Shown: positions 6,898 through 64,000 of the stretch, one piece after another | How positions within the stretch are numbered: the stretch's first letter is position 1 | How the letters are laid out: every line of letters begins with the position of its first letter | Assembly (NCBI GenBank): GCA_934465535.1 | Contig: CAKSKV010000004.1 | Coordinates: forward strand, 41,715-105,714 | Direction of reading: 5' to 3' | DNA length: 64,000 nucleotides | Source: an uncultured Clostridia bacterium | GTDB taxonomy: Bacteria > Bacillota > Clostridia > Christensenellales > QALW01 | Position numbers and translations under genes: made by a program | Notes under the pieces: generated by a model | Seen by the model: the letters and a program-made list of their open reading frames with translations, nothing else | Told to the model about the DNA's origin: nothing | The model's database searches: none

Positions 6898-6940
6898 AAC
6901 GCCGTCAATGTGCGTCTTTTGCACAGGGACGGCGTTTTTG
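6898..6940 (+). terminator. rho-independent terminator after the ABC-F gene
   Basis: AACGCCGTC..(inner TGTGC/GCACA stem)..GACGGCGTT followed by TTTT. Confidence 0.65.
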
Positions 6941-7184
6941 CGGTTTTATGGGCTGCTTACCGGGAAATATAACAAAAAAATATGCTTTTTTATGCCTTCT
7001 ATATGCGTTTTTTTGTAAAAGTGCGGTGCAAAACGACGGTTTTATAAAGGCGGCCGCAGAGCAGGGCGGGCGCAGCGGGAGAGAAAAAATATATTTTCTT
7101 TTGTCGGGCGGGGGCGCCGCGGACGCCTTTTATATAAAGCTTGCGGTTTTAAGGCTTTTTAACTGTATATACATTAACCATAAA

Positions 7185-8057: not shown

Positions 8058-8359
8058 TTTTCCCTCCGAAGCATAAGGAACAATCCCGGCTGCGCCGCAT
8101 CTGCGGCGCTGTGTGTTTTATTAAAGGCGACTTTATTACGGCAGTTACAGCGGGATTTATAACAGCATTATAACAATATAACAACAAATATATATGCGGA
8201 CGGAAAGACAAATATGCAAGCAAATAATGAATATCCGGCGCGGATAAAACGCATCAAATATAAAAATCAGAAATATAAAAATATAGTGTTGCGCCGCAAT
8301 CATACGATGATTATACAAAAAGCATAAAGCATGCACCGCCGCCCGGCATCCGGCATAAA

Positions 8360-9610: not shown

Positions 9611-9654
9611 ATGCTGCTTGCGGGATAATCGGCACGACCGGCAAGGCATAAAGG

Positions 9655-9685
9655 AAAAAGCTCCGAAAAAACTCGGAGCTTTTTT
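9655..9685. terminator. bidirectional terminator between convergent genes
   Basis: AAAAAGCTCCGA / TCGGAGCTTTTT perfect stem flanked by an A-run and a T-run. Confidence 0.7.
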
Positions 9686-9745
9686 GATATATTTGCTTTT
9701 TTGCAGTTTGCATTTTACCTTCTTGCCATCGGGGTTTTGCCCGAC

Positions 9746-10555
9746 TTAATCGGCTATGGCCGGGGGTGTAAAGCCTTTGAAGGTGAAGGAAATGCTGCTT
9801 TGCTGGATTTTTATAAGAGAATTATCCGCCGTGCTGTAATACATATAGGTGGCGGTGCTGGTAAAGGCGGTATTGGGGCGCACTACAACGGCATAGCACT
9901 CCACTTCGTTGTCATTGGCGTCCTTTATGCTGGTTACCTCGGCAACGGTAAGGCACATGCTCTGTACGGAATCGCGATTGGAGGAGGACAGAGTGAAGTT
10001 GAGCTTAAGGTCTTTATAGAGCGACAGGCAGCTGATAACAAAGGGCAGGGTTTCGGAATCGTAATACTGGCTGCTCACATTTACGGTGTAATCGCTGGTG
10101 GTCATTTCGTTGCTGTTATCGGGATACTGCTTTACATGAATCTCGATTTTTCCCTGGTTGAAGAGATGGTCGACATTCACGGAAACATTCTGTTGGGTGT
10201 TATCGTTGTTTTTATAATCCATGCTGACGGACACCGGTGACATTTCGGTGCGCCCGTTTTCCTTCTGACCAAGAAGGATATTGACGGAATCGATGCTTTC
10301 GGCGCCCTTTTCGCCGTGGCTTTCTATGCGTATACGCTCCCTGCCGCTTTCGTCGGTGTATTTTGAAACGGTATAAACGGTGTCGTAATCAGAGGCGACA
10401 TCGCCGTTTACCTGTCTTGTGGCAAAGGTGTATTGACCCTCCTTAAGCTTGGAAACATCCAGCTGAAGCATATCGTTCTCAGGCGCGGCGCAGCCGCAGC
10501 AAAGCACGAGCAGCGCAGAGGTAAGCAGCGCGACAAGGCCGGTTTTCTTTTTCAT
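9746..10555 (-). CDS. hypothetical lipoprotein
   Basis: Signal peptide with a Cys-containing lipobox-like end (LLVLCCGCA). No recognisable catalytic motif. Confidence 0.6.
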   Translation of the reverse strand: MKKKTGLVALLTSALLVLCCGCAAPENDMLQLDVSKLKEGQYTFATRQVNGDVASDYDTVYTVSKYTDESGRERIRIESHGEKGAESIDSVNILLGQKENGRTEMSPVSVSMDYKNNDNTQQNVSVNVDHLFNQGKIEIHVKQYPDNSNEMTTSDYTVNVSSQYYDSETLPFVISCLSLYKDLKLNFTLSSSNRDSVQSMCLTVAEVTSIKDANDNEVECYAVVVRPNTAFTSTATYMYYSTADNSLIKIQQSSISFTFKGFTPPAIAD

Positions 10556-10793
10556 ACGGATCTCCTTTTTGCCGTGCCCGGTAAGGCGCGCCCGAAAGGC
10601 GCTGCACTCGGTAAAACGGCGGGGGAATTATTTATATGGTTTATTATAGCATCAATGCGGCAAAACATAAAGAGAATTTTTTATAAACAGTGCATTTCAG
10701 ATGCCGGAAAACAGAAGCAGAAGCATAAAGCCCGCATTATAAAGCACAGGCCGCGGTTTTTTTCCGCGGCCTGTCGTGAAAAGGGCTTATAAG

Positions 10794-13007
10794 TTATTTT
10801 CTGCGCTTGCGGAAGAACACGGCTATAAGCACGGAGGCGCCGATAACCACCACCGCAATGGGAATAAGCATCCAGTGCAGCCCGAAGGGGACCTGAACCT
10901 GCTCTCCCGGCTCGGCGGTAGGCTGCTGTGTCGGAGGCGGCGTTACGGGATCGGAGGATTTTGCAAGCACGCTTGCCGCATCGGGCTGCCCCACTGCGTC
11001 ATCCACGGTTTTGCGATTGGGCGCGGTGTTGGTGGTTATGAAGGAAACGCCCTTGCGTGCGGTTTCCAGCATGGCCTTGCCGCCGTCCACCGTCCACATA
11101 TTTACAAGGGCGCCCCTGTGGGCAAGCGCGCGTGTTGCAGCGGCGGTCAATGCGCTGCTGGGACTGTATGAGCCGCCTGCGGAGGAGGTTTGGATATAGA
11201 AGGTTTCCAGGGATTTGACGGTGCCGTCGCCCTGAGCGTTTACCAGCAGGGAGGCGCCCACCTCCGGCATTTCCTCGCGGGATTTTTTGATTTGGTTGGG
11301 ATAAAAGCTGATTATTACTATGCGGTCCAGCATGCCCTTCTCGCGGGCAAGCTCGCTTATAAGGCGGGCGCATTTTGCCTTTTTGCTTTTTATTTCTATT
11401 ACCAGCATAAGGTCGTTGTTTTTCATTTCGTCAAAGAACTCGTCAAGGAAGGCGAAGTGCGCGCTGTTGTATTTGCCCACGGTGCGCAGGGTATATTCCT
11501 TGAGCTGCTCCCGCGTAAGGCGCTCCACATTTACATTGTCATTAGAGGTGGTATAGCCGCCCGTGGTGCCGTTATGGTTTATTAACAGATGGCCGTCGGA
11601 GGTTACATATACATCACATTCCACGGCATCGGCGCCTGCGGCTGCCGCTTCGCGCATACCCTCAACGGTGTTTTCCGGAGCAAGGGAGGGAACGCCGCGG
11701 TGCGCCACTATGAAGGGACGGCGCACAAAGGCCTCGCCCTGATCCACGGAGGAGAAAAGCTCATAGGCCTTGGCGTGGTCGGAAACCACAACATGGTTTG
11801 CGCCGCAGTCCAACGCCGCGCGCACTGCGGAATCGTCGGAGGTGTTTTCTTCAGGGCGCAGCATTACGGAGAGGAAGCGCGCCTGAAAATACTCGGCCTG
11901 CTCGCGGGTAACGGAGGACACCACCGCGATGTCGGCGTTTGCGCTGTGCACGGCAAATGCGCCCTCCGCGCCGGTTTTATCGGTTATAAGACCCTTGCGC
12001 ACCCCATTGGCGGATATTTCGCCAAGCACCTCAGCCGATGCGGAAACCACTATGAAATCGGTTTCGCCGCTTTGCTTTATGTATTCCTGAAGCTCCTGAG
12101 CCTGCTGCCGGCTGTCAAGCCGGAGCACGGGTATGATTCTTAAGCGGCAGGCGGCAAATATATCGGAAAGGGAGACGCCCTCAATCTTTGAAAGGTCAAA
12201 CCACGCAGCCTGAGTGGGAGCATCCTTGCTGAGGGAGGCTATGCCCTCCTTTGAGGAGATGTATTCCACAACGCTGGGGGGAGCTATAATGCCGGTTTCC
12301 GGCTCGTACACCATGCGGACGGTATCGCTTGCAGGCTCCTGACGATCCGCTATTTCGGCCGTTTTGGAAATGCGCACGGCATACACGCGCAGAACCGCCG
12401 CATTGGTTTGCAGGGCAAAGCCGCCGGCATCGGTAAGAAGGGCGGAATCGGTATAAAGCAGCTCCTGTCCGTTTATGCTTTGGGTGATCTTGCTGCCATC
12501 GCACACTATTTTGGCCGTATATATCTTATCCGGCGATATGCTTTCCGAAAAAGCGCCCTTGCCGTTATACTGCCAGGAGCCGCCGTTATCCTTGCAGGCG
12601 ATCTCCACGCCGTTTGCGGCCGCAGCGCCCCGCCGTATGCACATTTGCATATAAGGCTTGGGATCGGCGCCGGCGCCCGTCATTCTGTACATAAAGGATA
12701 TCCATCGGGTATCCTCGTTTGCGGAGGCTATGGTGAAATCCACCTCCATGGTGAAATCGGCAAGCTTTTCGCCGTCGGGAAGGTTTATGCTTGCTATACT
12801 GCTCTGTTCAAGCTGTACATAGCCGTTTTGAGCGCTGGCCTTGCCCGTAAGCACCGTAAGGGCCGAGGGCAGTGTATCTCCCGCTTTAAGGGAGGTGAAA
12901 TCGGCGTTAAGACAGTAGTCTTCGTCCTGTGCCGCAGCAGCGAAGCTAAAGCAGCCCAGCAGCATTACCAGTGCCGTCAGTGCACAGAGTAGCTTTGTTT
13001 TTCTCAT
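10794..13007 (-). CDS. glycerophosphodiester phosphodiesterase-family surface protein
   Basis: Signal peptide (start set at ATG 13007, MRKTKLL). GDPD blocks VAHRGVPSLAPENT and VECDVYVTSDGHLLINHN. C-terminal Pro/Thr linker, TM anchor and RKRRK. Confidence 0.8.
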   Translation of the reverse strand: MRKTKLLCALTALVMLLGCFSFAAAAQDEDYCLNADFTSLKAGDTLPSALTVLTGKASAQNGYVQLEQSSIASINLPDGEKLADFTMEVDFTIASANEDTRWISFMYRMTGAGADPKPYMQMCIRRGAAAANGVEIACKDNGGSWQYNGKGAFSESISPDKIYTAKIVCDGSKITQSINGQELLYTDSALLTDAGGFALQTNAAVLRVYAVRISKTAEIADRQEPASDTVRMVYEPETGIIAPPSVVEYISSKEGIASLSKDAPTQAAWFDLSKIEGVSLSDIFAACRLRIIPVLRLDSRQQAQELQEYIKQSGETDFIVVSASAEVLGEISANGVRKGLITDKTGAEGAFAVHSANADIAVVSSVTREQAEYFQARFLSVMLRPEENTSDDSAVRAALDCGANHVVVSDHAKAYELFSSVDQGEAFVRRPFIVAHRGVPSLAPENTVEGMREAAAAGADAVECDVYVTSDGHLLINHNGTTGGYTTSNDNVNVERLTREQLKEYTLRTVGKYNSAHFAFLDEFFDEMKNNDLMLVIEIKSKKAKCARLISELAREKGMLDRIVIISFYPNQIKKSREEMPEVGASLLVNAQGDGTVKSLETFYIQTSSAGGSYSPSSALTAAATRALAHRGALVNMWTVDGGKAMLETARKGVSFITTNTAPNRKTVDDAVGQPDAASVLAKSSDPVTPPPTQQPTAEPGEQVQVPFGLHWMLIPIAVVVIGASVLIAVFFRKRRK

Positions 13008-51628: not shown

Positions 51629-52047
51629 AGTTATAACCGCTTTCCCGAAGCATAAGGCTTCGCAGAGTAAGAATAAAACCGTTTCGGGCGCATAAAAAGC
51701 GCTTCGGCGGCATTTTTACGGTATGAATTTTATCATAAATAAGCCGTAAAAGAATGTGCAATCTGTAAACAATGCCGTTTTGCCCGATATTTTGGGCAAA
51801 AGACGAGCAAAAACATGCGCAAAAACGCAAAAAGCAGGGTTTATGTGCAGTTTGCACATTGAATACGCAAAGGAAATGAGTTATTATTATAATTGAATAA
51901 GTATGCCGGAGAACCGATTTACCGGTAGGAGCGCCACCGGGAATGCAGCAGCAAAAATGCGCAAAAACGCAGCGGCCGCCCATGCGCGGTTCCGTTTTGG
52001 GGAGCGGACGGGCACGGCAAAAAGAAAAGAGAAGGAAAGAAAACAAA

Positions 52048-54141
52048 ATGAAGCAAGGAAAAAAACTGCTGAGCATTATGCTGGCGATGCTTATCGCGGC
52101 CTTGGCCTGCGGGCTTACCGGCTGCATTAAGGCGCCGGGAGAGAGCGTAAGCGCAGAGGCAACACAGACTCCCGATACCGCCTTAAGCCCGGAGGCCACA
52201 CTTGACACAACTCCGTATACAACTCCCGGCGATACTCCCGATATAACGCCCGGCCCCACTCCGGCGCAAAGCGAAACCGTGCAGCCGCAGGATACCGAAT
52301 CTCCCGCGCCCACGCCCACGCCCGCTCCGGGAGATACCGGCGCGCCCGCACCGGGACCCACGGTATCCCATGCGCCGGTCAGCAAGTGGGATTATTATGT
52401 AACCTACGGCTCCGCCTCGATACGCACCGTTGCGCTTACCCGCTTTAACGACGGCACGCAGGGCGGCGGCGAAGGCAGCTTTACCTTTACCGGCGACGGG
52501 CTTTTAATAAAGCAGCAAAACGGCGCCTATGCCGATACCTACGGCATATATTCCGGGGCGAATCTGGGGTCGGCTGATTATTCCAAAGTGCGCTATGTGG
52601 GAATAACGGTTAAAAACCTTGAAAGCCACGATGTGCTTTTCGGGCTTCAGGGAACAGACAAAAATAGAAAGAATATATTTCTCTATCCCGAGGGCGATCC
52701 GATAGCTCTTGCTTATGACAACGGCGATATAAAGGCGGCCGGCGGTCAGGGCGGCGTGAACGGGCGCTATTGCATAGTGCTGCCCGCGGGCTTCTCCGGC
52801 AGCGTGTTTATCCCGCTTAACCGCATAGCGGACAGTCACGAAAAGGACAAGGCAAAGCAGTGGGCCAAAACCCCCATAACAAGCCCCGGCTTCCATTTAA
52901 GCGACGGCGGCAGCAAGGGAGTGCTGGTTTCGGCGCTGTTTATCTGCTCCTCTGCCCTGAAGGCTCCCGATGAGGCGGCGGGCGGCATTACAAACAAGGA
53001 CTACACCTATACCGAGGCTCAGCGCATTGCGGCCTTCTGGAAGAATTCCACAATGTACAACGAGTCCATCACCATGATGAAGCGTTCAAACGGCGAAATA
53101 TATGCAAAGACCCTGTTTGTGCCCACCAAGATAAACGCGGTGGTGGATGTGTACCTCCAGAAGGAATACAAGGAGGGCGTGGACTGGGAATGGGTAAAGG
53201 GCACAAACAAAATAAAGTGGCTCTCCGGCTCCTCCATTCCCTATTTTACGGATAACGACCTTTCCGGCAAGGATTCAAAGGGCAATTATATTCCGGAATT
53301 CCCCACATGGTCGGACGGCGGACGCAGCCGCTTCGGAAACGCGCTGTACTGCGTAAGCTCCTTCCTTTATGAAAAGCAGATATGCATAAGCTACACCTAC
53401 GATACGGCGCAGGTGGCAAAGCAGGGCATAAAATACACGCAGTATCAGGGCGATAAGCTGAAAAACACGGTGAACAAGCTTAAAAACGGCGAAAACCTGA
53501 AGGTGCTGTTCTACGGGGATTCCATATTCTCCGGCTGCGACGCCTCCGGCATGTATAACAGGGAGCCGTATATGCCCTATATGCACAAGCTTATACAGCA
53601 GGAGCTTTCCCGCAATACCAAGGGCAAGGTGCAGGTGGACAACTTGGCCGTGGGCGGCTGGACCGTGGAAAACGGACGGGACGCGCTTTCCGGCGAGGTG
53701 GGCGGATATAATTACTCTAATAAATACAAGGGCTACGACCTGCTTATACTCTCCTTCGGCATGAACAACGCGAGCACCCCCAAGGAGGAATATAATCCCG
53801 TAACCAAGGAATATGAAGGATATGTTCCGGCGACCAAGGCCATTGTGGATAAAATAAAGGCGGCAAACCCGAACCTTGAGGTGATACTGGTTTCCTGCAT
53901 GAACCCAAACCCCCGCGTGGGCTGGGATGTAAACCAGAAGAATCAGGGCGGATGGCTTAAGGAAATAGCGGCGCAAAGCCCGTATTCCTCCTATACTGCG
54001 GTGGTGGATTTCTATGCGGTGCACAAGAGCATACTTGCCTATAAGGATTTCAGCGCCACTACGGGCAACAACATAAACCATCCCAATGACTGGCTTATAC
54101 GCGTGTATGCGCAGAATATTCTTGCGGCGATGATAAAATAA
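52048..54141 (+). CDS. SGNH/GDSL hydrolase-family lipoprotein
   Basis: Start at ATG 52048. Lipobox LTGC, long Pro/Thr linker, then SGNH blocks FYGDSIFSG (block I), GMNN (block III), NINHPND (block V). Confidence 0.8.
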   Translation: MKQGKKLLSIMLAMLIAALACGLTGCIKAPGESVSAEATQTPDTALSPEATLDTTPYTTPGDTPDITPGPTPAQSETVQPQDTESPAPTPTPAPGDTGAPAPGPTVSHAPVSKWDYYVTYGSASIRTVALTRFNDGTQGGGEGSFTFTGDGLLIKQQNGAYADTYGIYSGANLGSADYSKVRYVGITVKNLESHDVLFGLQGTDKNRKNIFLYPEGDPIALAYDNGDIKAAGGQGGVNGRYCIVLPAGFSGSVFIPLNRIADSHEKDKAKQWAKTPITSPGFHLSDGGSKGVLVSALFICSSALKAPDEAAGGITNKDYTYTEAQRIAAFWKNSTMYNESITMMKRSNGEIYAKTLFVPTKINAVVDVYLQKEYKEGVDWEWVKGTNKIKWLSGSSIPYFTDNDLSGKDSKGNYIPEFPTWSDGGRSRFGNALYCVSSFLYEKQICISYTYDTAQVAKQGIKYTQYQGDKLKNTVNKLKNGENLKVLFYGDSIFSGCDASGMYNREPYMPYMHKLIQQELSRNTKGKVQVDNLAVGGWTVENGRDALSGEVGGYNYSNKYKGYDLLILSFGMNNASTPKEEYNPVTKEYEGYVPATKAIVDKIKAANPNLEVILVSCMNPNPRVGWDVNQKNQGGWLKEIAAQSPYSSYTAVVDFYAVHKSILAYKDFSATTGNNINHPNDWLIRVYAQNILAAMIK

Positions 54142-54381
54142 AAACGGCGAAGGGTATTGCCCTTTGCGCATTGCGCAAAATACGGCGGGGCGGCTGCACT
54201 GCCTCTCACTTAAGCGGCGCGGTATTTTTGCGATTTTCGCGCAAGACTCCGCGCCGATTTTACGCTTTTTATTGCACCGAAGAATAAAAGTGTGATAAAA
54301 TAAAGAAAACCGGCAGGGAATTTTTACGCCGGCAGGACTTGTTAAACACGGCCCGAGGGCTGTCTGAAAGGAAGATACTGT

Positions 54382-56121
54382 ATGAAAAACATCAGAAGCG
54401 GCGCATTTTTCGCGCCCTGCGGAAAAAAGAGCGGAAAAAGCGGAATAAAGCTGGATTATGTGGAGCCCACCGACCCCAAGGCGGGCAATACCGTGGCGCA
54501 TGCCGCCGTAAGCAAGTGGGATCAGACCTTTTCCTACGGCGATGCCTCGATAAAATGCACCGCACTTACCCGTTTTAACGACGGACAAATCGCTGCGGGC
54601 GAAAAAAGCGAGCAGGGGCTGCGCCTTACGGGCAGCGGCTTAAAGAAGGGCATAATAACCGGCGCAAACCTTGATTATGATTGCAGCGAGGCGGAGTATT
54701 ATGCAATATCGCTGTGCAATAACGGCAAAAAAGCGCTTATAGGCCTTGATGCGGATATTGAGGCGGACAAAGCAGTGCTGGCGCCGGAAAACGGAGAGCC
54801 GGAGGCGGTGCAGGCCGAAAAATGCGAAGGGATAAATGCCGCAGTGCTGCCCGAGGGCTTTAAGGGCTGCGTGCTTTTCCCGGTTAAAAACGCAAGGGAG
54901 AGCTTCGGCAGCGTTGATATAGCCTGGAGCGGCGATGTTACGCTGTGCGCACTGCTTATGTGCGATACGCCCCTTGAAATGCCGGGGCAGGGCAGCAAAA
55001 TAACAAACCCGCTGTACAGCTACACCGACAAACAGCGTATGCAGCCGTTTTGGGAGTGCTCCACCATGTATAATGAATCCATGGGCATGATGAAGCGGGA
55101 GGACGGCAGCATATGGGGCAAGCTGCTGTTTGTACCCACCCGCATAAACGCAGTGGTGGATGTATATCAGAAAAAGGAATATAAAGAGGGCAAGGACTGG
55201 CAGTGGATAGAGGGCACGAACCGAATAGTGCGCCCCGAAGGCTCGGATATTCCGTACTTTACGGAAGAAGGTCTTTCCGGCAAGGAGGAAAACGGCGAGT
55301 TCATTCCGGAATTCCCGACATGGACGGACGGCAGAAGCCGCTTCGGCGCCTGCCTGTACTGCGTGACGGATTTCATATATGAAAAGCAGATATGCGTATC
55401 CTATGAGTATGATTTAAGTCAGGTAAAGAGCGAGGGCATTGCAAGCACGCCGTGCCAGAGCGAGCGCCTTGTGCGCACAAATGCACGCCTTAAAGAGGGC
55501 CGCGACCTGAAGGTGCTGTTCTACGGGGATTCCATATTCTCCGGCTGTGACGCCTCCAGCATGTATAACAGAGAGCCTTTTATGCCCTATATGCATAAGC
55601 TTATAGAAAGCGCACTGGCCTCAAGAAGCACAGGGCGGGTGCGGGTGGACAACTTGGCCGTGGGCGGCTGGACCGTGGAAAACGGACGGGACGCACTTTT
55701 CGGCGATGTGGGCGGACACGATTATTCCAAGAGCTACAAGGGCTACGACCTTATGATACTTTCCTACGGCATGAACAATGCCTATACCCCCGAGGAGGAA
55801 TTCAAGGCGGCCACCCAAAAGATAATGGAAACGGTAAAAGAGGCAAACCCTGATATTGAAATAGTGCTGGTTTCCTGCATGAACCCCAACCCCCGCGTGG
55901 GCTGGGATGTAAACCAGAAATATCAGGGGCAGTGGCTTAAGGACATTGCCCAAATGCCTGCATGGCAGGAGCGCACGGCGCTTGTGGATTTCTATCAGGT
56001 GCATAAGAGCATACTGGTCTATAAGGATTTCAGCTCCACTACGGGCAACAACATAAACCACCCCAACGATTGGCTCATACGCGTGTATGCGCAGAATATA
56101 GTGCGGGCCATAACAGAATAG
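54382..56121 (+). CDS. SGNH/GDSL hydrolase-family protein (paralog lacking a signal peptide)
   Basis: Collinear with the upstream gene from VSKWD..ALTRFNDG to ..NINHPNDWLIRVYAQNI, with the same SGNH blocks. No lipobox or linker. Confidence 0.8.
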   Translation: MKNIRSGAFFAPCGKKSGKSGIKLDYVEPTDPKAGNTVAHAAVSKWDQTFSYGDASIKCTALTRFNDGQIAAGEKSEQGLRLTGSGLKKGIITGANLDYDCSEAEYYAISLCNNGKKALIGLDADIEADKAVLAPENGEPEAVQAEKCEGINAAVLPEGFKGCVLFPVKNARESFGSVDIAWSGDVTLCALLMCDTPLEMPGQGSKITNPLYSYTDKQRMQPFWECSTMYNESMGMMKREDGSIWGKLLFVPTRINAVVDVYQKKEYKEGKDWQWIEGTNRIVRPEGSDIPYFTEEGLSGKEENGEFIPEFPTWTDGRSRFGACLYCVTDFIYEKQICVSYEYDLSQVKSEGIASTPCQSERLVRTNARLKEGRDLKVLFYGDSIFSGCDASSMYNREPFMPYMHKLIESALASRSTGRVRVDNLAVGGWTVENGRDALFGDVGGHDYSKSYKGYDLMILSYGMNNAYTPEEEFKAATQKIMETVKEANPDIEIVLVSCMNPNPRVGWDVNQKYQGQWLKDIAQMPAWQERTALVDFYQVHKSILVYKDFSSTTGNNINHPNDWLIRVYAQNIVRAITE

Positions 56122-56327: not shown

Positions 56328-56403
56328 GGGGGTGTAGCTCAACTGGTAGAGCGCTTGAATGGCATTCAAGAGGTAAGGGGTTCGACCCCCCTCATCTCCA
56401 CCA
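56328..56403 (+). tRNA. tRNA-Ala (anticodon GGC)
   Basis: Folded by hand: acceptor GGGGGTG/CATCTCC with the G3:U70 Ala identity pair, D-arm GCTC-AACTGGTA-GAGC, anticodon arm CTTGA-ATGGCAT-TCAAG, variable loop AGGTA, T-arm AGGGG-TTCGACC-CCCCT, discriminator A and an encoded CCA. Confidence 0.9.
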
Positions 56404-56476
56404 AACAGGTATTGGACGAACACCTATTTCTTCAGCGGCGGTTTCGCCGTAAAGGTGATGCTCTAATACGAAACAG

Positions 56477-56514
56477 AAACCGCCATCTTAGATTAGGTTC
56501 TAAGGTGGCGGTTT
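56477..56514 (+). terminator. hairpin terminator after the tRNA
   Basis: AAACCGCCATCTTAG..CTAAGGTGGCGGTTT, a 15-bp stem with one G-U pair. The T residues lie partly within the stem. Confidence 0.5.
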
Positions 56515-56608
56515 TACATATAAGCAAGTCATTTGAAAATCAAGCCAATATCTGTAGTAATAAAATACAGAATAGTATTGAGTGTACACGAAATAAGGAG
56601 AACTATTT

Positions 56609-56869
56609 ATGTGGGAAAATATTGATATTGATAGGCATTACACGGGAGTGTTTCAAATTTTAGATGAACCAATATCGGGAGAATTGATTTATAATAAGCA
56701 AAATGGTACTATACTTTTAAGTCTAATAAAGGAAGTAAACTCGAAATCATTTTTCGGAAAAAGTTATGGCACACAACCGATTATTACCGGCAAGCTGAAC
56801 ACAGGTGCGGTAGTGACTCTTTTTAACAATCGGTGCAGTAACAACCATATTCATTGGTTACAAGACTAG
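56609..56869 (+). CDS. hypothetical 86-aa protein, probably a 5' gene fragment
   Basis: Good RBS (AAGGAGA). The sequence ends abruptly after ..VTLFNNRCSNNHIHWLQD and is followed by non-coding AT-rich DNA. Confidence 0.35.
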   Translation: MWENIDIDRHYTGVFQILDEPISGELIYNKQNGTILLSLIKEVNSKSFFGKSYGTQPIITGKLNTGAVVTLFNNRCSNNHIHWLQD

Positions 56870-56965
56870 TACGTTTTTTCTTTCTCGTTTTTTTTGTACA
56901 GGTCAAGATAAACACAAATATTCCGCTCTGATTTTATACTTATTTAAAGATTAGACAAAAAAGTC

Positions 56966-56994
56966 TTGACAAATACAGATGCGCCCATCATAAT
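56966..56994 (+). promoter_or_regulatory. candidate promoter at the head of the island
   Basis: TTGACA, 17-nt spacer, CATAAT. Confidence 0.4.
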
Positions 56995-57194
56995 ATACTT
57001 AAGAAATAAACTATCAAAAGACTTGGCCTTTTAAAAAAGAAGACAAAATCATATAGTTGCGTGATCGAGTGTCATAAAAAACATATTATTATACTGTAGT
57101 TTATTTTGATATATGAAATAATTCTTTAAAAGAGTTATGTGTAGTATAAAGCAAGAAAACAAAACTAATAAGTTTGGCATTGGAGAAACATATT

Positions 57195-57314
57195 ATGTTA
57201 AAGCAATGGCAAATATCGTTTGATGATGGATTATCGCCCTCATTATGTCTTTACGCAAATTTGAATAATGATAAGTTTAAAGCACACAATTATGTTGATC
57301 CGGTTACGGACTAA
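57195..57314 (+). CDS. 39-aa sORF MLKQWQISFDDGLSPSLCLYANLNNDKFKAHNYVDPVTD
   Basis: GGAGA lies 8 nt before the ATG. The 3' end of the ORF sits inside a long hairpin. Coding status is uncertain. Confidence 0.2.
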   Translation: MLKQWQISFDDGLSPSLCLYANLNNDKFKAHNYVDPVTD

Positions 57315-57338
57315 CATAATGGTGTGCTTTTTGTGTTT
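57279..57338 (+). terminator. terminator/attenuator-like hairpin upstream of the cluster
   Basis: AAAGCACACAATTATG (57279-57294) pairs with CATAATGGTGTGCTTT (57315-57330): 16 bp with one mismatch and a 20-nt loop, followed by TTGTGTTT. Confidence 0.45.
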
Positions 57339-57452
57339 AAAAATTACTTGCTGTTTTAGTTACTCAAGAGTGATGCTTAGGCAGCTTCGCAGCGTGCAGA
57401 GGTAGCGGGAAGCAGGATGGGTTCGCAGTATTATATGTGAGGAGAACGGTAT

Positions 57453-57950
57453 GTGGATGCAATTGAATGTATAAAGACAAGGCGCAGCGTTCGGCGCTAT
57501 ACCGATCAGCCGATTGACAAACAGGCAATACATCAAATTCTTGAAGCCGGCATCAGCGCTCCGTCCGGTAAAAACGGTCAGCCATGGAAATTCAAAGTTG
57601 TAACCGATAAAGAATTGATAAACAACATATCTGATTTATCGATTCATGGTTCATGGATGAAAACGGCACCGCTGATTATTGTGATATTTCTTGATAACGC
57701 CTGTTCATATGACCGACTGAAAGATATTCAATCCTGTGGAGCGGTTATGCAAAATATGATGTTAACCGCACACTCTCTTGATATCGGAAGCTGTTGGATT
57801 GGCGAAATACTGCCTAAGTCAAAAGAAGTAAAGCAAGTTTTGAAACTTAATGATGAAAGCCTTGAACTCATGGGAATTGTACTATTCGGACATAAATCGA
57901 GCCGAATGATTGATCCGGGGCGAAAGAGAATTGAATCGTTTCTGTTGTAA
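57453..57950 (+). CDS. nitroreductase-family flavoprotein
   Basis: RRSVRRYTDQPI and SAPSGKNGQPWKF motifs. GTG start 8 nt after GAGGAG. Confidence 0.85.
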   Translation: MDAIECIKTRRSVRRYTDQPIDKQAIHQILEAGISAPSGKNGQPWKFKVVTDKELINNISDLSIHGSWMKTAPLIIVIFLDNACSYDRLKDIQSCGAVMQNMMLTAHSLDIGSCWIGEILPKSKEVKQVLKLNDESLELMGIVLFGHKSSRMIDPGRKRIESFLL

Positions 57951-57962
57951 CGGCGGTATGGT

Positions 57963-59303
57963 ATGAGCAGAATTGCTTTGATTGGCGAGAACTCTATTGA
58001 ATATGTAAGTACACTGCTTGATATATGGAATTCTGGAGATTGCGCAGTATTGATAGACTGGCGGATACCGATTCAGACTGCAGTAGAAATGATGAATGAA
58101 GCCGAAGTGCATGTCTGTTACATCGAGAAAAAATATTACGGCAAAGTTTCCGGCGCGCGGTCTCAATGCATTACATTTATTCCTTTTGAGAAAAAGGCAA
58201 CTGCCGCAGGGCATCTGCCGGAATCAGTATATGATAGGTTCAAACCAAACTACAGCAAAAACGAAGCGGTTGTTTTATACAGTTCCGGAACAACAGGAAA
58301 ATCCAAAGGAATAATTCTTTCGCACTTTGCAATTAACACAAATGCCGATGCAATCATTGACTATATGAAACCCAATGCGGGAGATTGTATTTATATCGCA
58401 AAAACATTCTCTCATTCATCAACACTTACAGGAGAATTGCTGGTATCGCTTAAAACTCAAACCAAGCTTGTAATCGCGCCAACGATTGTTCCTCCGAGAT
58501 ATATGCTGGGAAAGATAAGAGAATTCAATGTTACAATAATATGTTTGAATCCGACATTACTTTCAATGCTTGCGAATGAAGTGCAACGAGACAAGTATGA
58601 CATTCCTTCGCTCAGAACGATATATGTCAGCGGCTCCATCTTGAACAATACGACCTATGTAAAAGCTCATGACACATTTAGAGATATACCGGTTTACAAT
58701 GTATACGGCTTGTCCGAAGCAGGGCCGAGAGTTGCAGCGCAGCGTGAAGGATGTTGCTCATCAAATTCAGTTGGAAGTCCGATTCTGGGCGTAGAAATAG
58801 TCATTGTCGATGAAAATGGAACACCGGTTACTGATGGGGAGCGCGGAACCGTTCATGTGACTACACCGAGTCAATTCTGCGGCTATATATCCGGACAAGT
58901 AAAGCAGCAGTCCATGTACAGGGATTGGCTGAATACCGGCGACATCGGGTATATCAACGATAACGGTGAATTGCATATTACCGGTCGTGTTGATGATGTA
59001 ATTGTTTTGGATGCACACAAAATTTATCCGTGCAAAATTGAAAATACTATCCTTGAATCGACTAATGTTTCTGAATGCGTCGTCGTAAAGGTTGAGTATA
59101 AGGATAACGAGTTTATTGGTTGCTTATATGTCGGGAATGATATTTCAGAGCAAGAAATAAGGGACAAGCTAAAAAACAAGCTCCCAACCTACGAAATCCC
59201 GAGGCGCTTTATACGATGCAATACAATTCCTCGAACATTAAACGGCAAAATATCCAACGCAGATATAAGAGAGAAAATAGTAAATGCTATAGAAATGGAG
59301 TAA
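57963..59303 (+). CDS. AMP-forming acyl/aminoacyl ligase (ANL superfamily)
   Basis: LYSSGTTGKSKGI (A3), YGLSEAGP (A5), TGDIGY and ITGRVDDVI (A7/A8), LNGK (A10). Confidence 0.85.
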   Translation: MSRIALIGENSIEYVSTLLDIWNSGDCAVLIDWRIPIQTAVEMMNEAEVHVCYIEKKYYGKVSGARSQCITFIPFEKKATAAGHLPESVYDRFKPNYSKNEAVVLYSSGTTGKSKGIILSHFAINTNADAIIDYMKPNAGDCIYIAKTFSHSSTLTGELLVSLKTQTKLVIAPTIVPPRYMLGKIREFNVTIICLNPTLLSMLANEVQRDKYDIPSLRTIYVSGSILNNTTYVKAHDTFRDIPVYNVYGLSEAGPRVAAQREGCCSSNSVGSPILGVEIVIVDENGTPVTDGERGTVHVTTPSQFCGYISGQVKQQSMYRDWLNTGDIGYINDNGELHITGRVDDVIVLDAHKIYPCKIENTILESTNVSECVVVKVEYKDNEFIGCLYVGNDISEQEIRDKLKNKLPTYEIPRRFIRCNTIPRTLNGKISNADIREKIVNAIEME

Positions 59304-59307
59304 AGAA

Positions 59308-59592
59308 ATGACAACAGAAGAGATAAAAACAGAAGTAATTGATTTGATTTCCGAATTGTTCGGGGACAAGGGTTTTGACACCGACATCATTGAATATGCC
59401 GATTTAGTCGATGACATGGGCATGGATTCAATAACCTTCATTTCGATTGTCGTCGAGCTTGAGGTAAAGTTTGATATTACTGTGTCGGATGATATGTTGC
59501 TGATAGATAACTTCAAGAAAGTCGATGATATTGTAGCTGTTGTCGAAAATGAACTGGCGAAAGGAGCTGAAAACGGCGATGGCTGTAAATGA
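59308..59592 (+). CDS. acyl/peptidyl carrier protein
   Basis: 94 aa. DMGMDSITFISIVVELE contains the phosphopantetheine Ser in a D-S-(I/L) context. Confidence 0.8.
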   Translation: MTTEEIKTEVIDLISELFGDKGFDTDIIEYADLVDDMGMDSITFISIVVELEVKFDITVSDDMLLIDNFKKVDDIVAVVENELAKGAENGDGCK

Positions 59593-60820
59593 AGAAAAGC
59601 TTGTTAAGATGCTAAGATATGTATCTGAGTATAACGATTTTTACAAGAACAGAATAAAAGAATACGGAATAACAAATCCGTTGGATATTACGCAATGGCC
59701 TGTTCTGACAAGGAAAGAGTTGCAAGAAAACCGGTATAATATGTTCTCGGATGGGTATAAGTCAAAGTATTTTAATCAGCAGCTCCGCAGACAGTCATCA
59801 TCCGGTTCATCCGGAATGCCGGTTAACGTCTATTGGGATTACAAAGACTGGTATGCATCAAATATGTCATTATGGCGCAAAAGGTGGCAGTGGTATGGTA
59901 TTAAGCCGGGCGACAAATATGTTATGTTTACATTGAATGCATTCAATGTAAAAGTGAACGGCGAGACTGTCTACTATATCAAAAAACCCGAGAATGTTCT
60001 GTCGGTCAATGTTTCTTTGATTCAAAATGAAGAGCAGTACAAAAATCTTGTTGATATCATGAACGATTTTAATCCTGCGTGGCTATATATTCAGCCTTTT
60101 GTACTTAATAAACTGATTCAAATCTACAAGAAATATGATTTGAAAAAGCCGACTGCTCTTAGATATATTGAATCCGTTGGTGAATTGCTATCATCAGATT
60201 TAAGAAGGCGGGCAATTGAATTCTTTGATGTTGCATTTGCCAATATGTATGGCTCAGAAGAAATGAACGGTATTGCGTATGAGTGTCCAGAATACCATAT
60301 GCAGGTGCTTAATGATAACATATATATTGAGGTTCAGAATAATAATGGCATTAGTCTAAGCGGAGACGGTGAGGCGATTATAACTAATTTGAATAATTTT
60401 GCTATGCCACTTATACGGTATAATCAATGCGATTGTATTGTTGTAGATAATTCTCAACCATATTCATGTGTAAATAACAGAAACATTATTTGTCATATCA
60501 ACGGAAGATCTTCTGATTGTATTGCACTGGGTGATAAAGAAATCAACAGCTATTTTTTAGTTGAAATACTATCAGAAACAAATAATCATTATAATGGTAT
60601 AATTGATTTTTATCGTTATGTGTATAAAAAATCTCAAAGAAAAATTGAATGTATGATAAATACAAAGAAAACTGAGTGGTATAGCAATATTAAAAAAACT
60701 TTGGAGGACATCTTTATAAAACAAGTCTTGCCTGATACCGATATTAGTTTTGAGGTCAAATTGGACAAAGAGGCTTTGCTTTATGGAGAGAAACCTCAAA
60801 TACTAACAATAGTTGATTAA
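59579..60820 (+). CDS. PaaK/F390-synthetase-like adenylate-forming enzyme
   Basis: SSGSSGMPV P-loop-like motif and YGSEE.., with the overall length and pattern of the phenylacetate-CoA ligase/CapK family. The start is uncertain (TTG 59540, ATG 59549 or ATG 59579) and overlaps the carrier gene end. Confidence 0.75.
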   Translation: MAVNEEKLVKMLRYVSEYNDFYKNRIKEYGITNPLDITQWPVLTRKELQENRYNMFSDGYKSKYFNQQLRRQSSSGSSGMPVNVYWDYKDWYASNMSLWRKRWQWYGIKPGDKYVMFTLNAFNVKVNGETVYYIKKPENVLSVNVSLIQNEEQYKNLVDIMNDFNPAWLYIQPFVLNKLIQIYKKYDLKKPTALRYIESVGELLSSDLRRRAIEFFDVAFANMYGSEEMNGIAYECPEYHMQVLNDNIYIEVQNNNGISLSGDGEAIITNLNNFAMPLIRYNQCDCIVVDNSQPYSCVNNRNIICHINGRSSDCIALGDKEINSYFLVEILSETNNHYNGIIDFYRYVYKKSQRKIECMINTKKTEWYSNIKKTLEDIFIKQVLPDTDISFEVKLDKEALLYGEKPQILTIVD

Positions 60821-60906
60821 TCAATTGATCAAATCTATTTCAATTACTATTTAACGTACAATAAAATTGTATGTTAAAGATATAACTAAAACACAAGGAG
60901 AGTAGT

Positions 60907-62256
60907 ATGAGTGTCTTTGAAAATGATACCCCTGTTGTTAAGACATTCGTGTACAAGAATAAATGTTATTTATATGATACATATAATAATCAGCTCTTTT
61001 CTGTACACAGTAGACTTTATTACGAAATTTGCAAAATGCAAACAATAGGTATTTGTAAATATATGCATTTAAATTGTAATGATAATTACTATAAAGATGT
61101 GTTAACATTAATGAATAAGGGGTACTTACGCCATGGATTCATTGACAAAGTCCAGCATCAGTCAACACCTTATATAGAGTATCTAACAGAGCGTTGTATG
61201 AGTCATTTAGTTCTTGAGGTAACAAATTCATGCAATTTTAAATGTAGATATTGTCACCAAGCGAGTAATCAAACTATAAATAAAAAAGTAATGAACACAA
61301 ATGTAGCATATCGCAGTATTGACTTGTTTTATGAACATTCAAAGGATGCGAATGATTTAGTATTGACCTTTTATGGCGGTGAGCCACTTATTAATTTCAA
61401 TTTAATAAAAGAAATGGTTATGTATGCGAAAGATAAGTTCAAGACAAAAAGGGTTTCATTTAATATAACAACAAATGCATCCTTAATTGATGAGGAAATA
61501 ATCGATTTTTTATATAGTAATGGCTTTTCAATTTTAATAAGTTTAGACGGAGATGAAGTGATTCAAAACAGTCATCGAAAGTTTCTAATAGATGGTGGAG
61601 ATACTTTTGATATTGTATGGAATAATATTCTTAAAATTCGCGCCAAATATCCCTCGTTTTTCAACTCGAATGTAAGTTTCAATTCTGTAAGATTGCAAGA
61701 CGAATCAAGAAGAAAAGTAGTAGAGTTTTTTAGAAAAAATGGTATATCTGATTCGTCAATTAGTATTCGTGATGCAGATATGGACGGCATTGATTATATA
61801 TATTCGCCGTTGTTTATAGATGCCAATAATAGAGATGATGACAGTATTAACAAAGATGATTTTTCTAACGTATTAAAGTTATATAACAACAAAAGTAAGA
61901 TACCAAAGGTATGGCATCATAATGGACCTTGTATACCAGCAGTAAATCGTCTGTTTGTCAGCACGGAAGGAAAGTTTTATCCATGCGAAAAAGTAGAACA
62001 AGATGATGCGTGTTCCATTGGAGACTTAGCAACAGGTGTTGATATTGACAAAGTGGTGCGAATCTTAAACATTGGCCAGATTACGAGTAATGATTGTCCG
62101 AATTGTTGGGCTTTAAGATTTTGCTCGATATGTGTGCATCGTTGCGTTGATAACGGGAGTTTATCGTACGATAAAAAAGTTAGATCTTGTAAAAAAACAA
62201 AAGAAGATGCAATAAGATTTTTTAAATATCTTATAGATAATAAACAGGTGAAGTAA
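60907..62256 (+). CDS. radical SAM peptide maturase with SPASM-type C-terminal domain
   Basis: SCNFKCRYC (CxxxCxxC), FYGGEPL, and a C-terminal Cys cluster GPCIPAV..GKFYPCEK..CPNCWALRFCSICVHRC. RBS AAGGAGA. Confidence 0.9.
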   Translation: MSVFENDTPVVKTFVYKNKCYLYDTYNNQLFSVHSRLYYEICKMQTIGICKYMHLNCNDNYYKDVLTLMNKGYLRHGFIDKVQHQSTPYIEYLTERCMSHLVLEVTNSCNFKCRYCHQASNQTINKKVMNTNVAYRSIDLFYEHSKDANDLVLTFYGGEPLINFNLIKEMVMYAKDKFKTKRVSFNITTNASLIDEEIIDFLYSNGFSILISLDGDEVIQNSHRKFLIDGGDTFDIVWNNILKIRAKYPSFFNSNVSFNSVRLQDESRRKVVEFFRKNGISDSSISIRDADMDGIDYIYSPLFIDANNRDDDSINKDDFSNVLKLYNNKSKIPKVWHHNGPCIPAVNRLFVSTEGKFYPCEKVEQDDACSIGDLATGVDIDKVVRILNIGQITSNDCPNCWALRFCSICVHRCVDNGSLSYDKKVRSCKKTKEDAIRFFKYLIDNKQVK

Positions 62257-62299
62257 ATAGTAAATATCTGTAATAAAGAAGGAAGGGATAGCTTTGCAA

Positions 62300-63172
62300 A
62301 TGGAAAATATAGGTTTGCTAACTAATTCGATTACGGCTCGTATGTTAATGTATCAAATTGATTATGTGTTAAACATACCTGTGAAAAATATCTATGTTTT
62401 ATCTGAAAACCATAATAAAAGCGAAATATTTCCTACTAGCGGCGCAAAAGTAACTATATGTGACTCATATGATGAGTTCATACAAAAAAGTGAATTGATA
62501 ATTACTTCAAACAAGCAAGAAACGTTAGCGCATATTGACAACAGAAAACTTCTATTTATTGATAGCCCTTGGAATGGTTATGAAAATCATAGCATGAATG
62601 GTTGTTTAACTAAAAAGCTTAATTATTCGAATGCTCCTGTTGTTTTTATATTATCAATTGGCGATTTTACCGATCAATATCACATTGAAATACTTGTCAA
62701 TAAAATCGTAGCCTCGAAAACAAAAAGAATAGCACAAATTTTTACCCCGGAAACAAAAGCATTACTAGATAGTATCGCTAAATCAAAAAACATAAATCCC
62801 AATTTAGTAAATGCATGCAATAATAATGATGGTGATGTAATTATTATTTCTGCAAATAATATATCGAATGATTTAGAATTGATACAAATTATAAAAGAAA
62901 TATCTCCGGATTACTTTATCTTATGTGTTGATTACTCATTTAACGGATTAAATGAGGTTGAGTTATTCTTTTCAAATATTTGTAAAATAAATATTGTTGT
63001 CCAATCTCCCTATATTACAAATAAATTGTTGGAAGGAAAACAATGGTCTGTTTATTGTAATGTAGAAAAATCCAATGTCTTCCATAATACATTGGAAAAA
63101 GATTTCGAAAACTACTTGGAATTACACATTATGCAGAAAATATTCATGCCTAACAGTATTGGCTTTGTATAA
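62300..63172 (+). CDS. hypothetical protein of the peptide-maturation cluster (possibly TIGR04066-like)
   Basis: 290 aa with no motif I recognise. Its position between the rSAM and precursor genes matches my recollection of the clostridial TIGR04066 family. ATG 62300 follows GAAGGAAGGG. Confidence 0.6.
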   Translation: MENIGLLTNSITARMLMYQIDYVLNIPVKNIYVLSENHNKSEIFPTSGAKVTICDSYDEFIQKSELIITSNKQETLAHIDNRKLLFIDSPWNGYENHSMNGCLTKKLNYSNAPVVFILSIGDFTDQYHIEILVNKIVASKTKRIAQIFTPETKALLDSIAKSKNINPNLVNACNNNDGDVIIISANNISNDLELIQIIKEISPDYFILCVDYSFNGLNEVELFFSNICKINIVVQSPYITNKLLEGKQWSVYCNVEKSNVFHNTLEKDFENYLELHIMQKIFMPNSIGFV

Positions 63173-63198
63173 CATTTGAAAATTGAAAAGCGGAATAG
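63170..63198. repeat. left arm of a perfect 29-bp inverted repeat
   Basis: TAACATTTGAAAATTGAAAAGCGGAATAG. It begins with the stop codon of the upstream gene. Confidence 0.9.
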
Positions 63199-63215
63199 TG
63201 GAAGGAGGTGAAAAA

Positions 63216-63386
63216 ATGTTTTTGAAGTCTGATAACAACAATGATTTTATAACAAGATCGTGTTGTTCTCCTACCTGCCAGTGTGGTACTTGTGGTGGTG
63301 TTTCAACTGCAGAATCAAAGGGGCGTAGCGGAGCTACTAGCAGTGGTGGAACCGTTGTTTCTGCCCAAAGCCCAACGTCTGCATAA
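63216..63386 (+). CDS. 56-aa Cys-rich RiPP precursor candidate
   Basis: MFLKSDNNNDFITRSCCSPTCQCGTCGGVSTAESKGRSGATSSGGTVVSAQSPTSA. GGAAGGAGGTG lies 7 nt upstream. It sits beside the rSAM/SPASM enzyme and an exporter. Confidence 0.65.
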   Translation: MFLKSDNNNDFITRSCCSPTCQCGTCGGVSTAESKGRSGATSSGGTVVSAQSPTSA

Positions 63387-63423
63387 GCAGACTAATAGCA
63401 TTATGATAAGTATAGTTTATTAC

Positions 63424-63452
63424 CTATTCCGCTTTTCAATTTTCAAATGTTA
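63424..63452. repeat. right arm of the perfect 29-bp inverted repeat
   Basis: CTATTCCGCTTTTCAATTTTCAAATGTTA, the exact reverse complement of 63170-63198. Confidence 0.9.
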
Positions 63453-63478
63453 ATAATAAGTGAAAGCGTGGCGAAATA

Positions 63479-64000
63479 ATGAAGGATAAAATAAATCATT
63501 TCCTTAAAGCCGAATGGTTTTGCCTAAAACAGATTTTTAAAACAGATTTTTTAAACGGCTTGGTTTTTTTAATTATTACTGGGATAAAATATGCAATTCC
63601 GCTTATCAGCGTGTGGTTATGGAAAATAATACTTGATGAATTGACCTTAATCTACCAAACAAAAGCAGCAAGCAATGATATATGGATATATCTCGGAATA
63701 TATCTTGTGATTCAAATGTTTTCGTCTGTCATTGTTCAAGTGAACTCAGTTATTTACGCAAAAGTAAGGCGAAAAGCATCATATGAGCTTGACATGGCAA
63801 TCATGCGGAAGATGGCGCAAATTGATTCCGCTTTCTTTGACGATCCGGAAAACAAGGATGTAACAGAAGCGGCACGGACAAGCGAAGGATATATCGCACT
63901 TAATATGCCGTGGGCGATTGATACGATTATCCGGATCATTACCTTTATTTCGGGTCTTGTTATGTTTCTTTCCTATGACTGGATTGTCGGGTTGATTTAC
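63479..64000 (+). CDS. ABC exporter permease/ATPase, 5' part (truncated by the window end)
   Basis: Open frame from ATG 63479 to the window edge (MKDKINHFLKAEWF..). It has exporter TMD features (hydrophobic helices, ..MRKMAQIDSAFFDDPE..) and no C39 peptidase-like N-terminus. Confidence 0.75.
   Translation, partial: MKDKINHFLKAEWFCLKQIFKTDFLNGLVFLIITGIKYAIPLISVWLWKIILDELTLIYQTKAASNDIWIYLGIYLVIQMFSSVIVQVNSVIYAKVRRKASYELDMAIMRKMAQIDSAFFDDPENKDVTEAARTSEGYIALNMPWAIDTIIRIITFISGLVMFLSYDWIVGLIY

Follow-up and report, generated by a model that had tools for sequence, protein, structure and literature searches.

A stand-alone acyl carrier protein and two adenylate-forming ligases as a candidate tailoring module in a divergent CcpM-type peptide maturation cassette

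The CcpM/TIGR04066/TIGR04069 set is a known, bioinformatically defined kind of peptide maturation system. Two canonical CcpM loci, both on plasmids (pCLOPA01 of Clostridium pasteurianum and a plasmid of Clostridium tagluense), were examined for comparison. Both hold a CLI_3235-family precursor (so annotated in C. pasteurianum only), CcpM, a TIGR04066 protein, an acyl carrier protein (ACP)-related protein and an ATP-binding cassette (ABC) exporter, and the same gene set has been described in Paenibacillus, in the P. polymyxa SacP23 cluster (PMC10731318). No structure of any CcpM-type peptide product was found in the literature searched. Here we analysed a 64,000-nt stretch of DNA (the window) from an uncultured Clostridia bacterium (contig CAKSKV010000004.1, positions 41,715 to 105,714), in which a cassette for a peptide that is made on ribosomes and modified after translation (RiPP) is the cargo of a mobile island. 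As judged from its genes, this is a ‘Cys-rich peptide maturation system’ of the CcpM type, in divergent form. It also encodes an ANL ligase, a stand-alone ACP and a PaaK-like ligase, referred to below as the trio. A dedicated tailoring module of this radical S-adenosylmethionine (SAM) cassette is the best explanation we can offer for the trio, and the arrangement suggests an undescribed way of equipping a ribosomal peptide with an acyl unit of non-ribosomal origin.

The three genes of the trio lie on the + strand where the initial annotation had placed them:

57963..59303, + strand: ANL adenylate-forming ligase, 446 amino acids (aa); PF00501 (E 3.4e-46) and PF13193.
59308..59592, + strand: stand-alone acyl carrier protein, 94 aa; PF00550, with phosphopantetheine Ser41.
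59579..60820, + strand: PaaK-fold adenylate-forming ligase, 413 aa; ATG start, with an alternative TTG start at 59540.

Ser41 of the carrier lies in the sequence DDMGMDSI (family motif DDxGMDS). The initial annotation had read the serine of GMDSI as the phosphopantetheine site and had held that a carrier lacking a modifiable Ser in alignments would speak against its proposal. The residue was invariant in 18 of 18 homologues, which are 22-68% identical to the window carrier. Together with the PF00550 match, the invariant Ser41 gives the protein the D-S-(L/I) signature of a functional ACP, and by these features the carrier is a true, canonical acyl carrier protein. The canonical CcpM systems differ at precisely this component. 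At the Ser column, Ala or Val stands in all three ACP-related proteins of the two canonical loci, whereas the window carrier has DDxGMDS, and neither of the two loci encodes an ANL or a PaaK-like ligase, whereas the window cassette encodes both. Thus, among the loci examined, adenylate-forming enzymes and an intact carrier Ser are found together. The gene order differs as well, the window ACP gene lying 5' of the radical SAM gene and the canonical ACP-related gene after the TIGR04066 gene. The TIGR04069 model was matched weakly by 16 of the 18 carriers (the window ACP scored 17 bits against a cut-off of 70). Orthology of the trio ACP to TIGR04069 was considered and found unsupported, since the hhalign match (79% over 50 columns) reflects generic ACP similarity and the operon positions differ.

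These comparisons bear on an alternative in which the carrier, like the TIGR04069 proteins without the Ser, plays no catalytic part and serves as a chaperone or scaffold, with the ligases as evolutionary passengers. Canonical CcpM systems do keep a Ser-less ACP-like protein without ligases, and the weak TIGR04069 matches of the carriers point the same way. However, the Ser and its DDxGMDS motif are invariant, and purifying selection acts on all catalytic motifs of both ligases, in relatives whose PaaK-like identity goes down to 44%. We consider a purely structural carrier very unlikely. A separate observation on the ACP-like proteins comes from the C. tagluense plasmid pCM008-A, where three 67-aa Cys-rich open reading frames (ORFs), annotated as hypothetical, alternate with two Ser-less ACP-related genes at 11687-12954. 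The alternation is a hint that peptide and ACP-like protein pair one to one. Immediately upstream is an agr-type quorum-sensing set.

The ANL ligase has the complete set of A3, A5, A7, A8 and A10 motifs first reported for it (YSSGTTGKSKG, YGLSEAG, NTGDIGY, GRVDDV...HKIYP and PRTLNGK, respectively), and these are kept with minor substitutions in 11 homologues, including the A10 Lys. The whole family lacks ~45 N-terminal residues of standard ANLs. In amino-acid adenylation, Asp235 is the residue that binds the alpha-amino group. The A4 motif of the window family is a conserved SHSS, in which alignment with the LgrA adenylation domains places a Ser at the Asp235 equivalent. The best NCBIfam matches were fatty-acid, o-succinylbenzoate and malonyl coenzyme A (CoA) ligases, all under their cut-offs. 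Together, the Ser at the Asp235 position and these matches make the ANL look like a carboxylic-acid ligase and not an amino-acid activating enzyme. A Cys-Cys pair follows the A5 motif (AQRxxCCxSNSVG, residues ~264-265) in 9 of 12 family members.

An ANL adjoining a small carrier is also the arrangement of DltA/DltC, and membership of a primary-metabolism family such as Dlt had been named at the outset as a finding that would count against a role in peptide tailoring. In a Dlt-like envelope modification or self-immunity, the ANL and carrier would acylate a cell-wall polymer and so shield the producer. The ANL and the carrier do match the corresponding models, but weakly, with 121 bits for the ANL against a DltA cut-off of 476 and 24 bits for the carrier against a DltC cut-off of 68. 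The ANL lacks the amino-binding Asp, and no MBOAT (DltB) or DltD was found in the Pfam lists of the island, which cover loci L001-L010, a set with an identical radical SAM protein. The GDSL genes upstream belong to the host flank, and we know of no PaaK-like partner in Dlt systems. On the low scores, the Ser at Asp235, the missing DltB and DltD and the setting in a mobile RiPP operon, a Dlt or primary-metabolism identity was rejected, and a Dlt-like function is extremely unlikely.

The PaaK-like ligase had been given the TTG start at 59540 in the initial annotation. The frame is open from this codon too, and a look-up of the TTG version gave no match because public gene calls start at the ATG. 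The ATG at 59579 is preceded by AAAGGAG, and from it the gene overlaps the carrier gene by 14 nt, which bears out the overlap first described. No Pfam family matched the protein. Its NCBIfam matches were FlxY, the DVU_1553 family, PaaK and F390 synthetase, all far under cut-offs; the PaaK equivalog TIGR02155 scored 51.6 bits against a cut-off of 646, and the locus has no paa genes. The enzyme is not the phenylacetate-CoA ligase PaaK and shares only its fold. A profile of the family retrieves PaaK-fold structures in the PDB, and an AlphaFold model with a predicted local distance difference test (pLDDT) score of 79.5 superposes in Foldseek on PaaK1/2, BT_0428, NatL2, AjiA1 and ClxA (template-modelling (TM) score ~0.6, E ~1e-19 to 1e-22), in agreement with the fold assigned at first. 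Conserved in the family are a P-loop SSGSSG, the A5-, A7- and A8-like segments YGSEEMNG, PLIRY and GR, and a C-terminal Lys. At E <= 1e-3, 431 relatives were found in a 90%-clustered collection, and the best 120 of these 431 are 53-99% identical to the window protein.

In the PDB, the PaaK-like ligase matches ClxA from Clostridium cavendishii best by sequence (83 bits, full length), and at ~20% identity the likeness is an analogy that carries no claim of membership. ClxA is reported to activate aromatic acids and to couple them, with no CoA or carrier, straight to an amine or, in vitro, a phenol (PMC9400959; PMC12519233). NatL2 carries out the same direct joining with an ester linkage (PMC9400959), and ClxC, a relative of ClxA, activates a larger pathway intermediate and not a small building block (PMC9400959). 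The PaaK fold thus offers a precedent for a direct, second ATP-dependent joining step.

The genes that define the RiPP cassette follow the trio on the same strand:

60907..62256, + strand: radical SAM/SPASM peptide maturase, 449 aa; family match CcpM (TIGR04068).
62294..63172, + strand: 292-aa protein (U292), two-domain alpha/beta; remote TIGR04066 homologue.
63216..63386, + strand: Cys-rich precursor peptide, 56 aa; GGAGG a few bases 5' of the ATG.
63479..64000, + strand: 5' part of an ABC exporter gene, the first of two, truncated by the window end.

The maturase matches TIGR04068 best (362 bits, E 4e-108, against a curated cut-off of 500), and its translation shows the CX3CX2C and SPASM Cys motifs. 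For U292, the TIGR04066 model was matched directly by 2 of 18 family members, the window U292 itself not passing, while hhalign of the 18-member family against C. pasteurianum WP_015617868 (TIGR04066) gave a probability of 95.9% (E 6.3e-9). By these matches U292 is related to the TIGR04066 ‘peptide maturation system protein’, and only as a remote homologue. The TIGR04066-like family forms 139 clusters at 50% identity. The AlphaFold2 model of U292 has a pLDDT of 92 and a predicted TM score of 0.92, and its P-loop-like segment lacks Lys; among the conserved proteins without an assigned role, it alone could act as a scaffold or a transferase. The precursor is laid out as MFLKSDNNNDFITRS, followed by CCSPTCQCGTCGG and a polar Ser/Thr/Gly tail. 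Across loci, precursors have a leader of 15-21 residues, often starting with MxFEK, a cluster of 3-6 Cys and a long tail. The window precursor had no NCBIfam match to the CLI_3235-family model TIGR04065 and has the same architecture with at least 3 Cys.

Collectively, the sub-threshold TIGR04068 match, U292 as a TIGR04066 homologue and the precursor layout argue for a divergent CcpM-type system. The likeness lies in the best family match of the radical SAM enzyme, the remote TIGR04066-type partner, the precursor with its leader, Cys cluster and tail, the ABC export and the small ACP-fold protein. The divergence is seen in the scores, since every window component falls below the curated CcpM-system cut-offs, and in an S8 protease that is present in the C. 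pasteurianum locus and was not seen in the window cassette. The RiPP setting claimed in the initial annotation thus stands, on the maturase, the 56-aa Cys-rich ORF and synteny across loci; that the locus is of the CcpM/TIGR04066/TIGR04069 type, with a catalogued ACP-related component, had been missed. In one related locus, L032, ORFs of 81 and 331 aa were left unassigned.

Synteny was examined in a scan of one genome per species, in which ORFs were searched with the window proteins and 22 loci with a PaaK-like gene were found. These carry labels of metagenome-assembled genomes or uncultured isolates and are mostly from Clostridia (Oscillospiraceae, Ruminococcaceae and Lachnospiraceae), with one labelled Selenomonadales and one Mollicutes. 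At PaaK-like identities of 36-66%, 15 of the 22 loci have the order ANL, ACP, PaaK-like and radical SAM gene, and after these a U292-like ORF, a short ORF rich in Cys and an ABC gene. Oscillospiraceae, Lachnospiraceae and a metagenome-assembled genome labelled Selenomonadales are among the hosts of this arrangement. In L012 and L026 the U292 homologue was missed by phmmer, and an ORF of ~300 aa with a family-like N-terminal sequence stands in its place. The same core is present in L001-L010 and in L037-L040, the latter being metagenome loci on conjugative or integrative elements, and in several loci the PaaK-like and radical SAM genes abut or overlap by a few bases. Since this order recurs in 15 of the 22 divergent genome loci and again in other metagenome loci, the trio belongs to the RiPP cassette, as a dedicated part of it. 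The CcpM variant with the trio is common in gut and rumen anaerobes and spreads on mobile elements. Some loci are exceptions. L018 was considered as a natural carrier-less cassette and rejected as a decaying duplicate, its second PaaK-like copy having an in-frame stop and its first being cut by the contig end; the PaaK-like gene of L030 has lost its P-loop and looks decayed; and L028 and L029 are unrelated contexts.

On this basis, we propose that a host phosphopantetheinyl transferase (PPTase) would convert the carrier to its holo form at Ser41, and that both adenylate-forming enzymes would spend ATP on building an acyl unit on it. The ANL would activate a carboxylic acid other than an alpha-amino acid. 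The PaaK/ClxA-like ligase would either load the carrier or form an amide or ester bond directly, as do ClxA, NatL2 and DdaG. As clues to carrier loading, the ANL and ACP genes are adjacent, and the ACP and PaaK-like genes overlap and persist together in L031, a locus described below. The carrier-bound unit would then be joined to the Cys-rich peptide, which would also be modified by the radical SAM/SPASM enzyme and its TIGR04066-like partner, and the acylated or hybrid product would leave through the ABC pumps. Every family member offers Ser/Thr hydroxyls, Cys thiols and, after leader removal, an N-terminus, which are the candidate acceptors, as well as a C-terminal carboxylate. Lys had also been suggested at first, and it cannot be a universal acceptor since the precursor cores of L021 and L025 have none. 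The transfer catalyst may be the PaaK-like enzyme or the 292-aa protein. Every chemical step of this scheme, together with the order of the ligases, the acid, the acceptor and the transfer catalyst, is what we infer from the genes. We put the probability of such an acylated or hybrid RiPP, with an acyl unit built on the holo-carrier by the two ligases and joined to a peptide also modified by the radical SAM enzyme and U292, at roughly 45%.

Several findings weigh against this reading. Neither a PPTase nor a condensation domain was seen in the window, as first noted, and a rough tblastn screen of the element for PPTases, with AcpS and Sfp queries, was also empty; no PPTase was seen in L037-L040 either. 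No recognisable acyl-ACP:peptide transferase (GNAT, condensation domain, BtrH or thioesterase) was found in the window, L001-L010 or L037-L040, where Pfam gave no match to GNAT, condensation-domain or thioesterase families. Polyketide synthase (PKS) and fatty acid synthase (FAS) families were likewise absent from these genes, in keeping with the initial proposal that the route is distinct from GNAT or PKS/FAS logic. Foldseek matches of U292 in the PDB were at the level of single domains only, to Mur ligases and signal recognition particle-type GTPases (TM 0.22-0.30). A radical SAM RiPP cluster, CcpM-type or other, with a stand-alone ACP, an ANL and a PaaK-like ligase is undescribed in the open literature searched, the coverage of which was incomplete. 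Locus L031 has the ACP and PaaK-like genes with no ANL in the 614 nt examined upstream of the ACP gene, where ~490 nt hold no same-strand ORF of at least 60 aa and are preceded by the 3' end of an ABC gene. The initial scheme of loading followed by joining therefore holds in part: a second, direct ATP-dependent joining has the precedent of ClxA, whereas the order in which the ANL loads and the PaaK-like ligase joins is not secure given L031. Finally, the same kind of trio is found elsewhere without any peptide, so that peptide-independent products are possible.

The persistence of the PaaK-like and ACP genes in L031, where no upstream ANL was seen, also fits an alternative in which the PaaK-like enzyme adenylates the peptide itself, at its C-terminal carboxylate or an Asp/Glu side chain, and links it to a nucleophile tethered on the carrier or to the carrier's own thiol. 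The product would be a peptidyl-thioester, or a peptide C-terminally extended or cyclised, with a partner unit supplied by the ANL. The PaaK-like gene is the trio member tied closest to the radical SAM gene, which it often overlaps, and ClxC offers the example of a relative acting on a larger intermediate. Precursor C-termini, moreover, are mostly small (S, A, G or C), and many have a Cys 0-6 residues from the end. However, the C-terminal residues are not strictly conserved, Ser-rich tails yield small C-termini by composition, and all characterised PaaK-fold enzymes that we found activate small acids. Activation through Asp or Glu meets the further obstacle that both are absent from the L011 core. 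We regard activation of the peptide as unlikely.

Trios outside RiPP cassettes are found on plasmids. In C. perfringens, adjacent ANL, ACP and PaaK-like genes lie in a plasmid cluster without a precursor or radical SAM gene, and a plasmid of B. cereus has the three within five consecutive genes of a non-RiPP cluster. The ANLs of these plasmid clusters are 28-30% identical to the window ANL. On pCPCPI53k-r1_2 of C. perfringens (5172-11815) and ~30 similar plasmids, the trio has a BtrH_N protein on one side and, on the other, a HAD hydrolase plus a non-ribosomal peptide synthetase-type adenylation protein; this type of cluster may use the same carrier chemistry. Such sets in non-RiPP clusters give the trio the look of a reusable module for carrier-based assembly. 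They also agree with an alternative in which the trio makes a separate small molecule (an N-acyl/aryl amide or ester, or a co-substrate of the radical SAM enzyme) that is co-expressed with the RiPP and not attached to it, as do the free small molecules made by ClxA-type ligases and the lack of a transferase to the peptide in the genes searched. The operon synteny and the coupling to the radical SAM gene across many lineages argue against this, and the cassettes hold no substrate-supply genes, no thioesterase or release enzyme and little else able to use the product. A separate metabolite, which would make the operon a two-product locus, is in our view about as improbable as activation of the peptide.

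If the trio does acylate the peptide, as in the reading we prefer, it would provide a new tailoring route, compact at six or seven genes, with the prospect of reconstituting and reusing it for attaching non-ribosomal acids to ribosomal peptides. It would also explain the Ser-less ACP-like protein that canonical CcpM systems keep. A more specific proposal, which we advance only tentatively and with less confidence than acylation as such, is that gut and rumen Clostridia share a widespread family of RiPPs in which a unit assembled on the carrier by the two adenylate-forming enzymes is joined to a Cys-rich peptide, crosslinked by the radical SAM enzyme, through the ClxA-like ligase or the TIGR04066-like protein. 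Such products would be RiPP-thiotemplate hybrids made without GNAT, condensation domain or PKS, and the Ser-less ACP-like protein of the canonical systems would be a degenerate remnant.

The precursor ORF is bracketed by a perfect inverted repeat:

63170..63198, strand not assigned: 5' arm of the inverted repeat, 29 nt.
63424..63452, strand not assigned: 3' arm of the inverted repeat, 29 nt; 225 nt between the arms.

In at least 7 divergent loci (L011, L012, L014, L016, L019, L020 and L025), the precursor ORF is likewise flanked on both sides by exact inverted repeats, which measure 14-20 nt and differ in sequence. This suggests a conserved long-range RNA stem, which could stabilise or process the precursor transcript.

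The host element, its insertion site and the start of the gene row are marked by the following features:

56328..56403, + strand: tRNA-Ala(GGC), insertion site of the low-GC mobile island.
56966..56994, + strand: sigma-70-like promoter match, TTGACA-17-CATAAT, 11/12; the best upstream of the gene row, as a consensus match only.
57453..57950, + strand: nitroreductase-family (flavin mononucleotide) protein, 165 aa; from family matches.

The G+C content is 30-40% in the last 7.6 kb of the window compared to 52-57% over most of the remainder. Identity to other element copies starts at 56376, inside the tRNA-Ala gene: window 56376-64000 is 99.7% identical to metagenome locus L001, and copies in other metagenomes are 99.6-99.8% identical, in each case with a different left flank. 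Some of these copies hold extra cargo at ~56850 (Band_7, Fic, TnpV and a Y1 transposase). The different left flanks, the identity starting in the tRNA gene and the cargo at ~56850 show that the cluster rides an integrative element. The element targets the 3' end of tRNA-Ala(GGC), and the RiPP cassette is its cargo. An Rfam scan of the island found the tRNA alone above the gathering score. From the nitroreductase gene onwards, the trio and the RiPP genes form a single + strand row of nitroreductase, ANL, ACP, PaaK-like ligase, radical SAM/SPASM enzyme, 292-aa protein, precursor and ABC exporters, with no terminator-like site predicted on the + strand between 56400 and 64000. In the window, L012 and L025, homologues or fragments of the nitroreductase lie directly 5' of the ANL gene, and the protein is an optional accessory.

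At the island edge, an 86-aa ORF (56609-56869), the sole match of which is to the first part of the ApeA N-terminal domain 1 (PF18862), looks like a truncated gene; other element copies have ORFs of 95-155 aa there. The island edge and the nitroreductase gene are 580 nt apart, and in the space between them a 39-codon ORF (MLKQWQISFDDGLSPSLCLYANLNNDKFKAHNYVDPVTD) was read by eye at 57196-57315; it overlaps a sub-threshold Rfam match to Ref64 (26.8 bits against 44.3). On the host side of the tRNA, 51943-56121 encodes two large paralogous secreted proteins (732 and 579 aa) with C-terminal GDSL/SGNH lipase-like domains. These belong to the host flank outside the island, are not DltD and are not co-inherited with the element. 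Beyond the window end, L001-L010 continue with ABC exporters of 601 and 594 aa, which have no Pfam peptidase-domain match, then with paralogues of 321 and 313 aa, followed by integrase, plasmid-partition and conjugation-type genes. The paralogues (L001 16267-18157) share the motif GNYVxGxxNE...HDxLLYGYDD, have no family match and have homologues in L020, L022, L027 and L032. They were considered as BtrH-type acyl-ACP transferases, a role that was left unsupported: a single homologue had a weak BtrH_N match (E 0.0075), hhalign against a real BtrH_N protein gave 28% over C-terminal helices only, and there is no conserved Cys.

Beyond the CcpM and Dlt systems, three kinds of described pathway resemble the window trio in part. 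ClxA, NatL2 and AjiA1 of the benzoxazole pathways have the same fold and core motifs as the PaaK-like ligase. They act on free aromatic acids without a carrier, whereas the window pairs its ligase with one and has no genes for aminohydroxybenzoic acid synthesis or for an amidohydrolase. In the VinN/VinL/VinM, streptothricin ORF5/ORF19 and butirosin BtrI/BtrJ pathways, a stand-alone carrier is loaded by one enzyme, and the tethered unit is extended by a second ATP-dependent enzyme. These pathways tether amino acids and feed PKS, nucleoside and aminoglycoside scaffolds, whereas the window ANL lacks the amino-binding Asp, the setting is that of a ribosomal peptide and a BtrH-type transferase was not confirmed. 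Lipidated RiPPs would share with the window product, if acylation holds, a ribosomal peptide bearing an acyl group. Among them, goadvionins and lipolanthines are made by PKS/FAS plus GNAT enzymes, and selidamides and nostolysamides by GNAT enzymes; the acyl donor of goadvionins is an acyl-ACP. A lipoprotein-pathway route to lipidated RiPPs has also been described (PMC12636315). In contrast to all of these, the window cassette has no GNAT, PKS/FAS or Lgt-type gene, and combines two stand-alone adenylate-forming enzymes with a Cys-rich scaffold predicted to be modified by the radical SAM enzyme.

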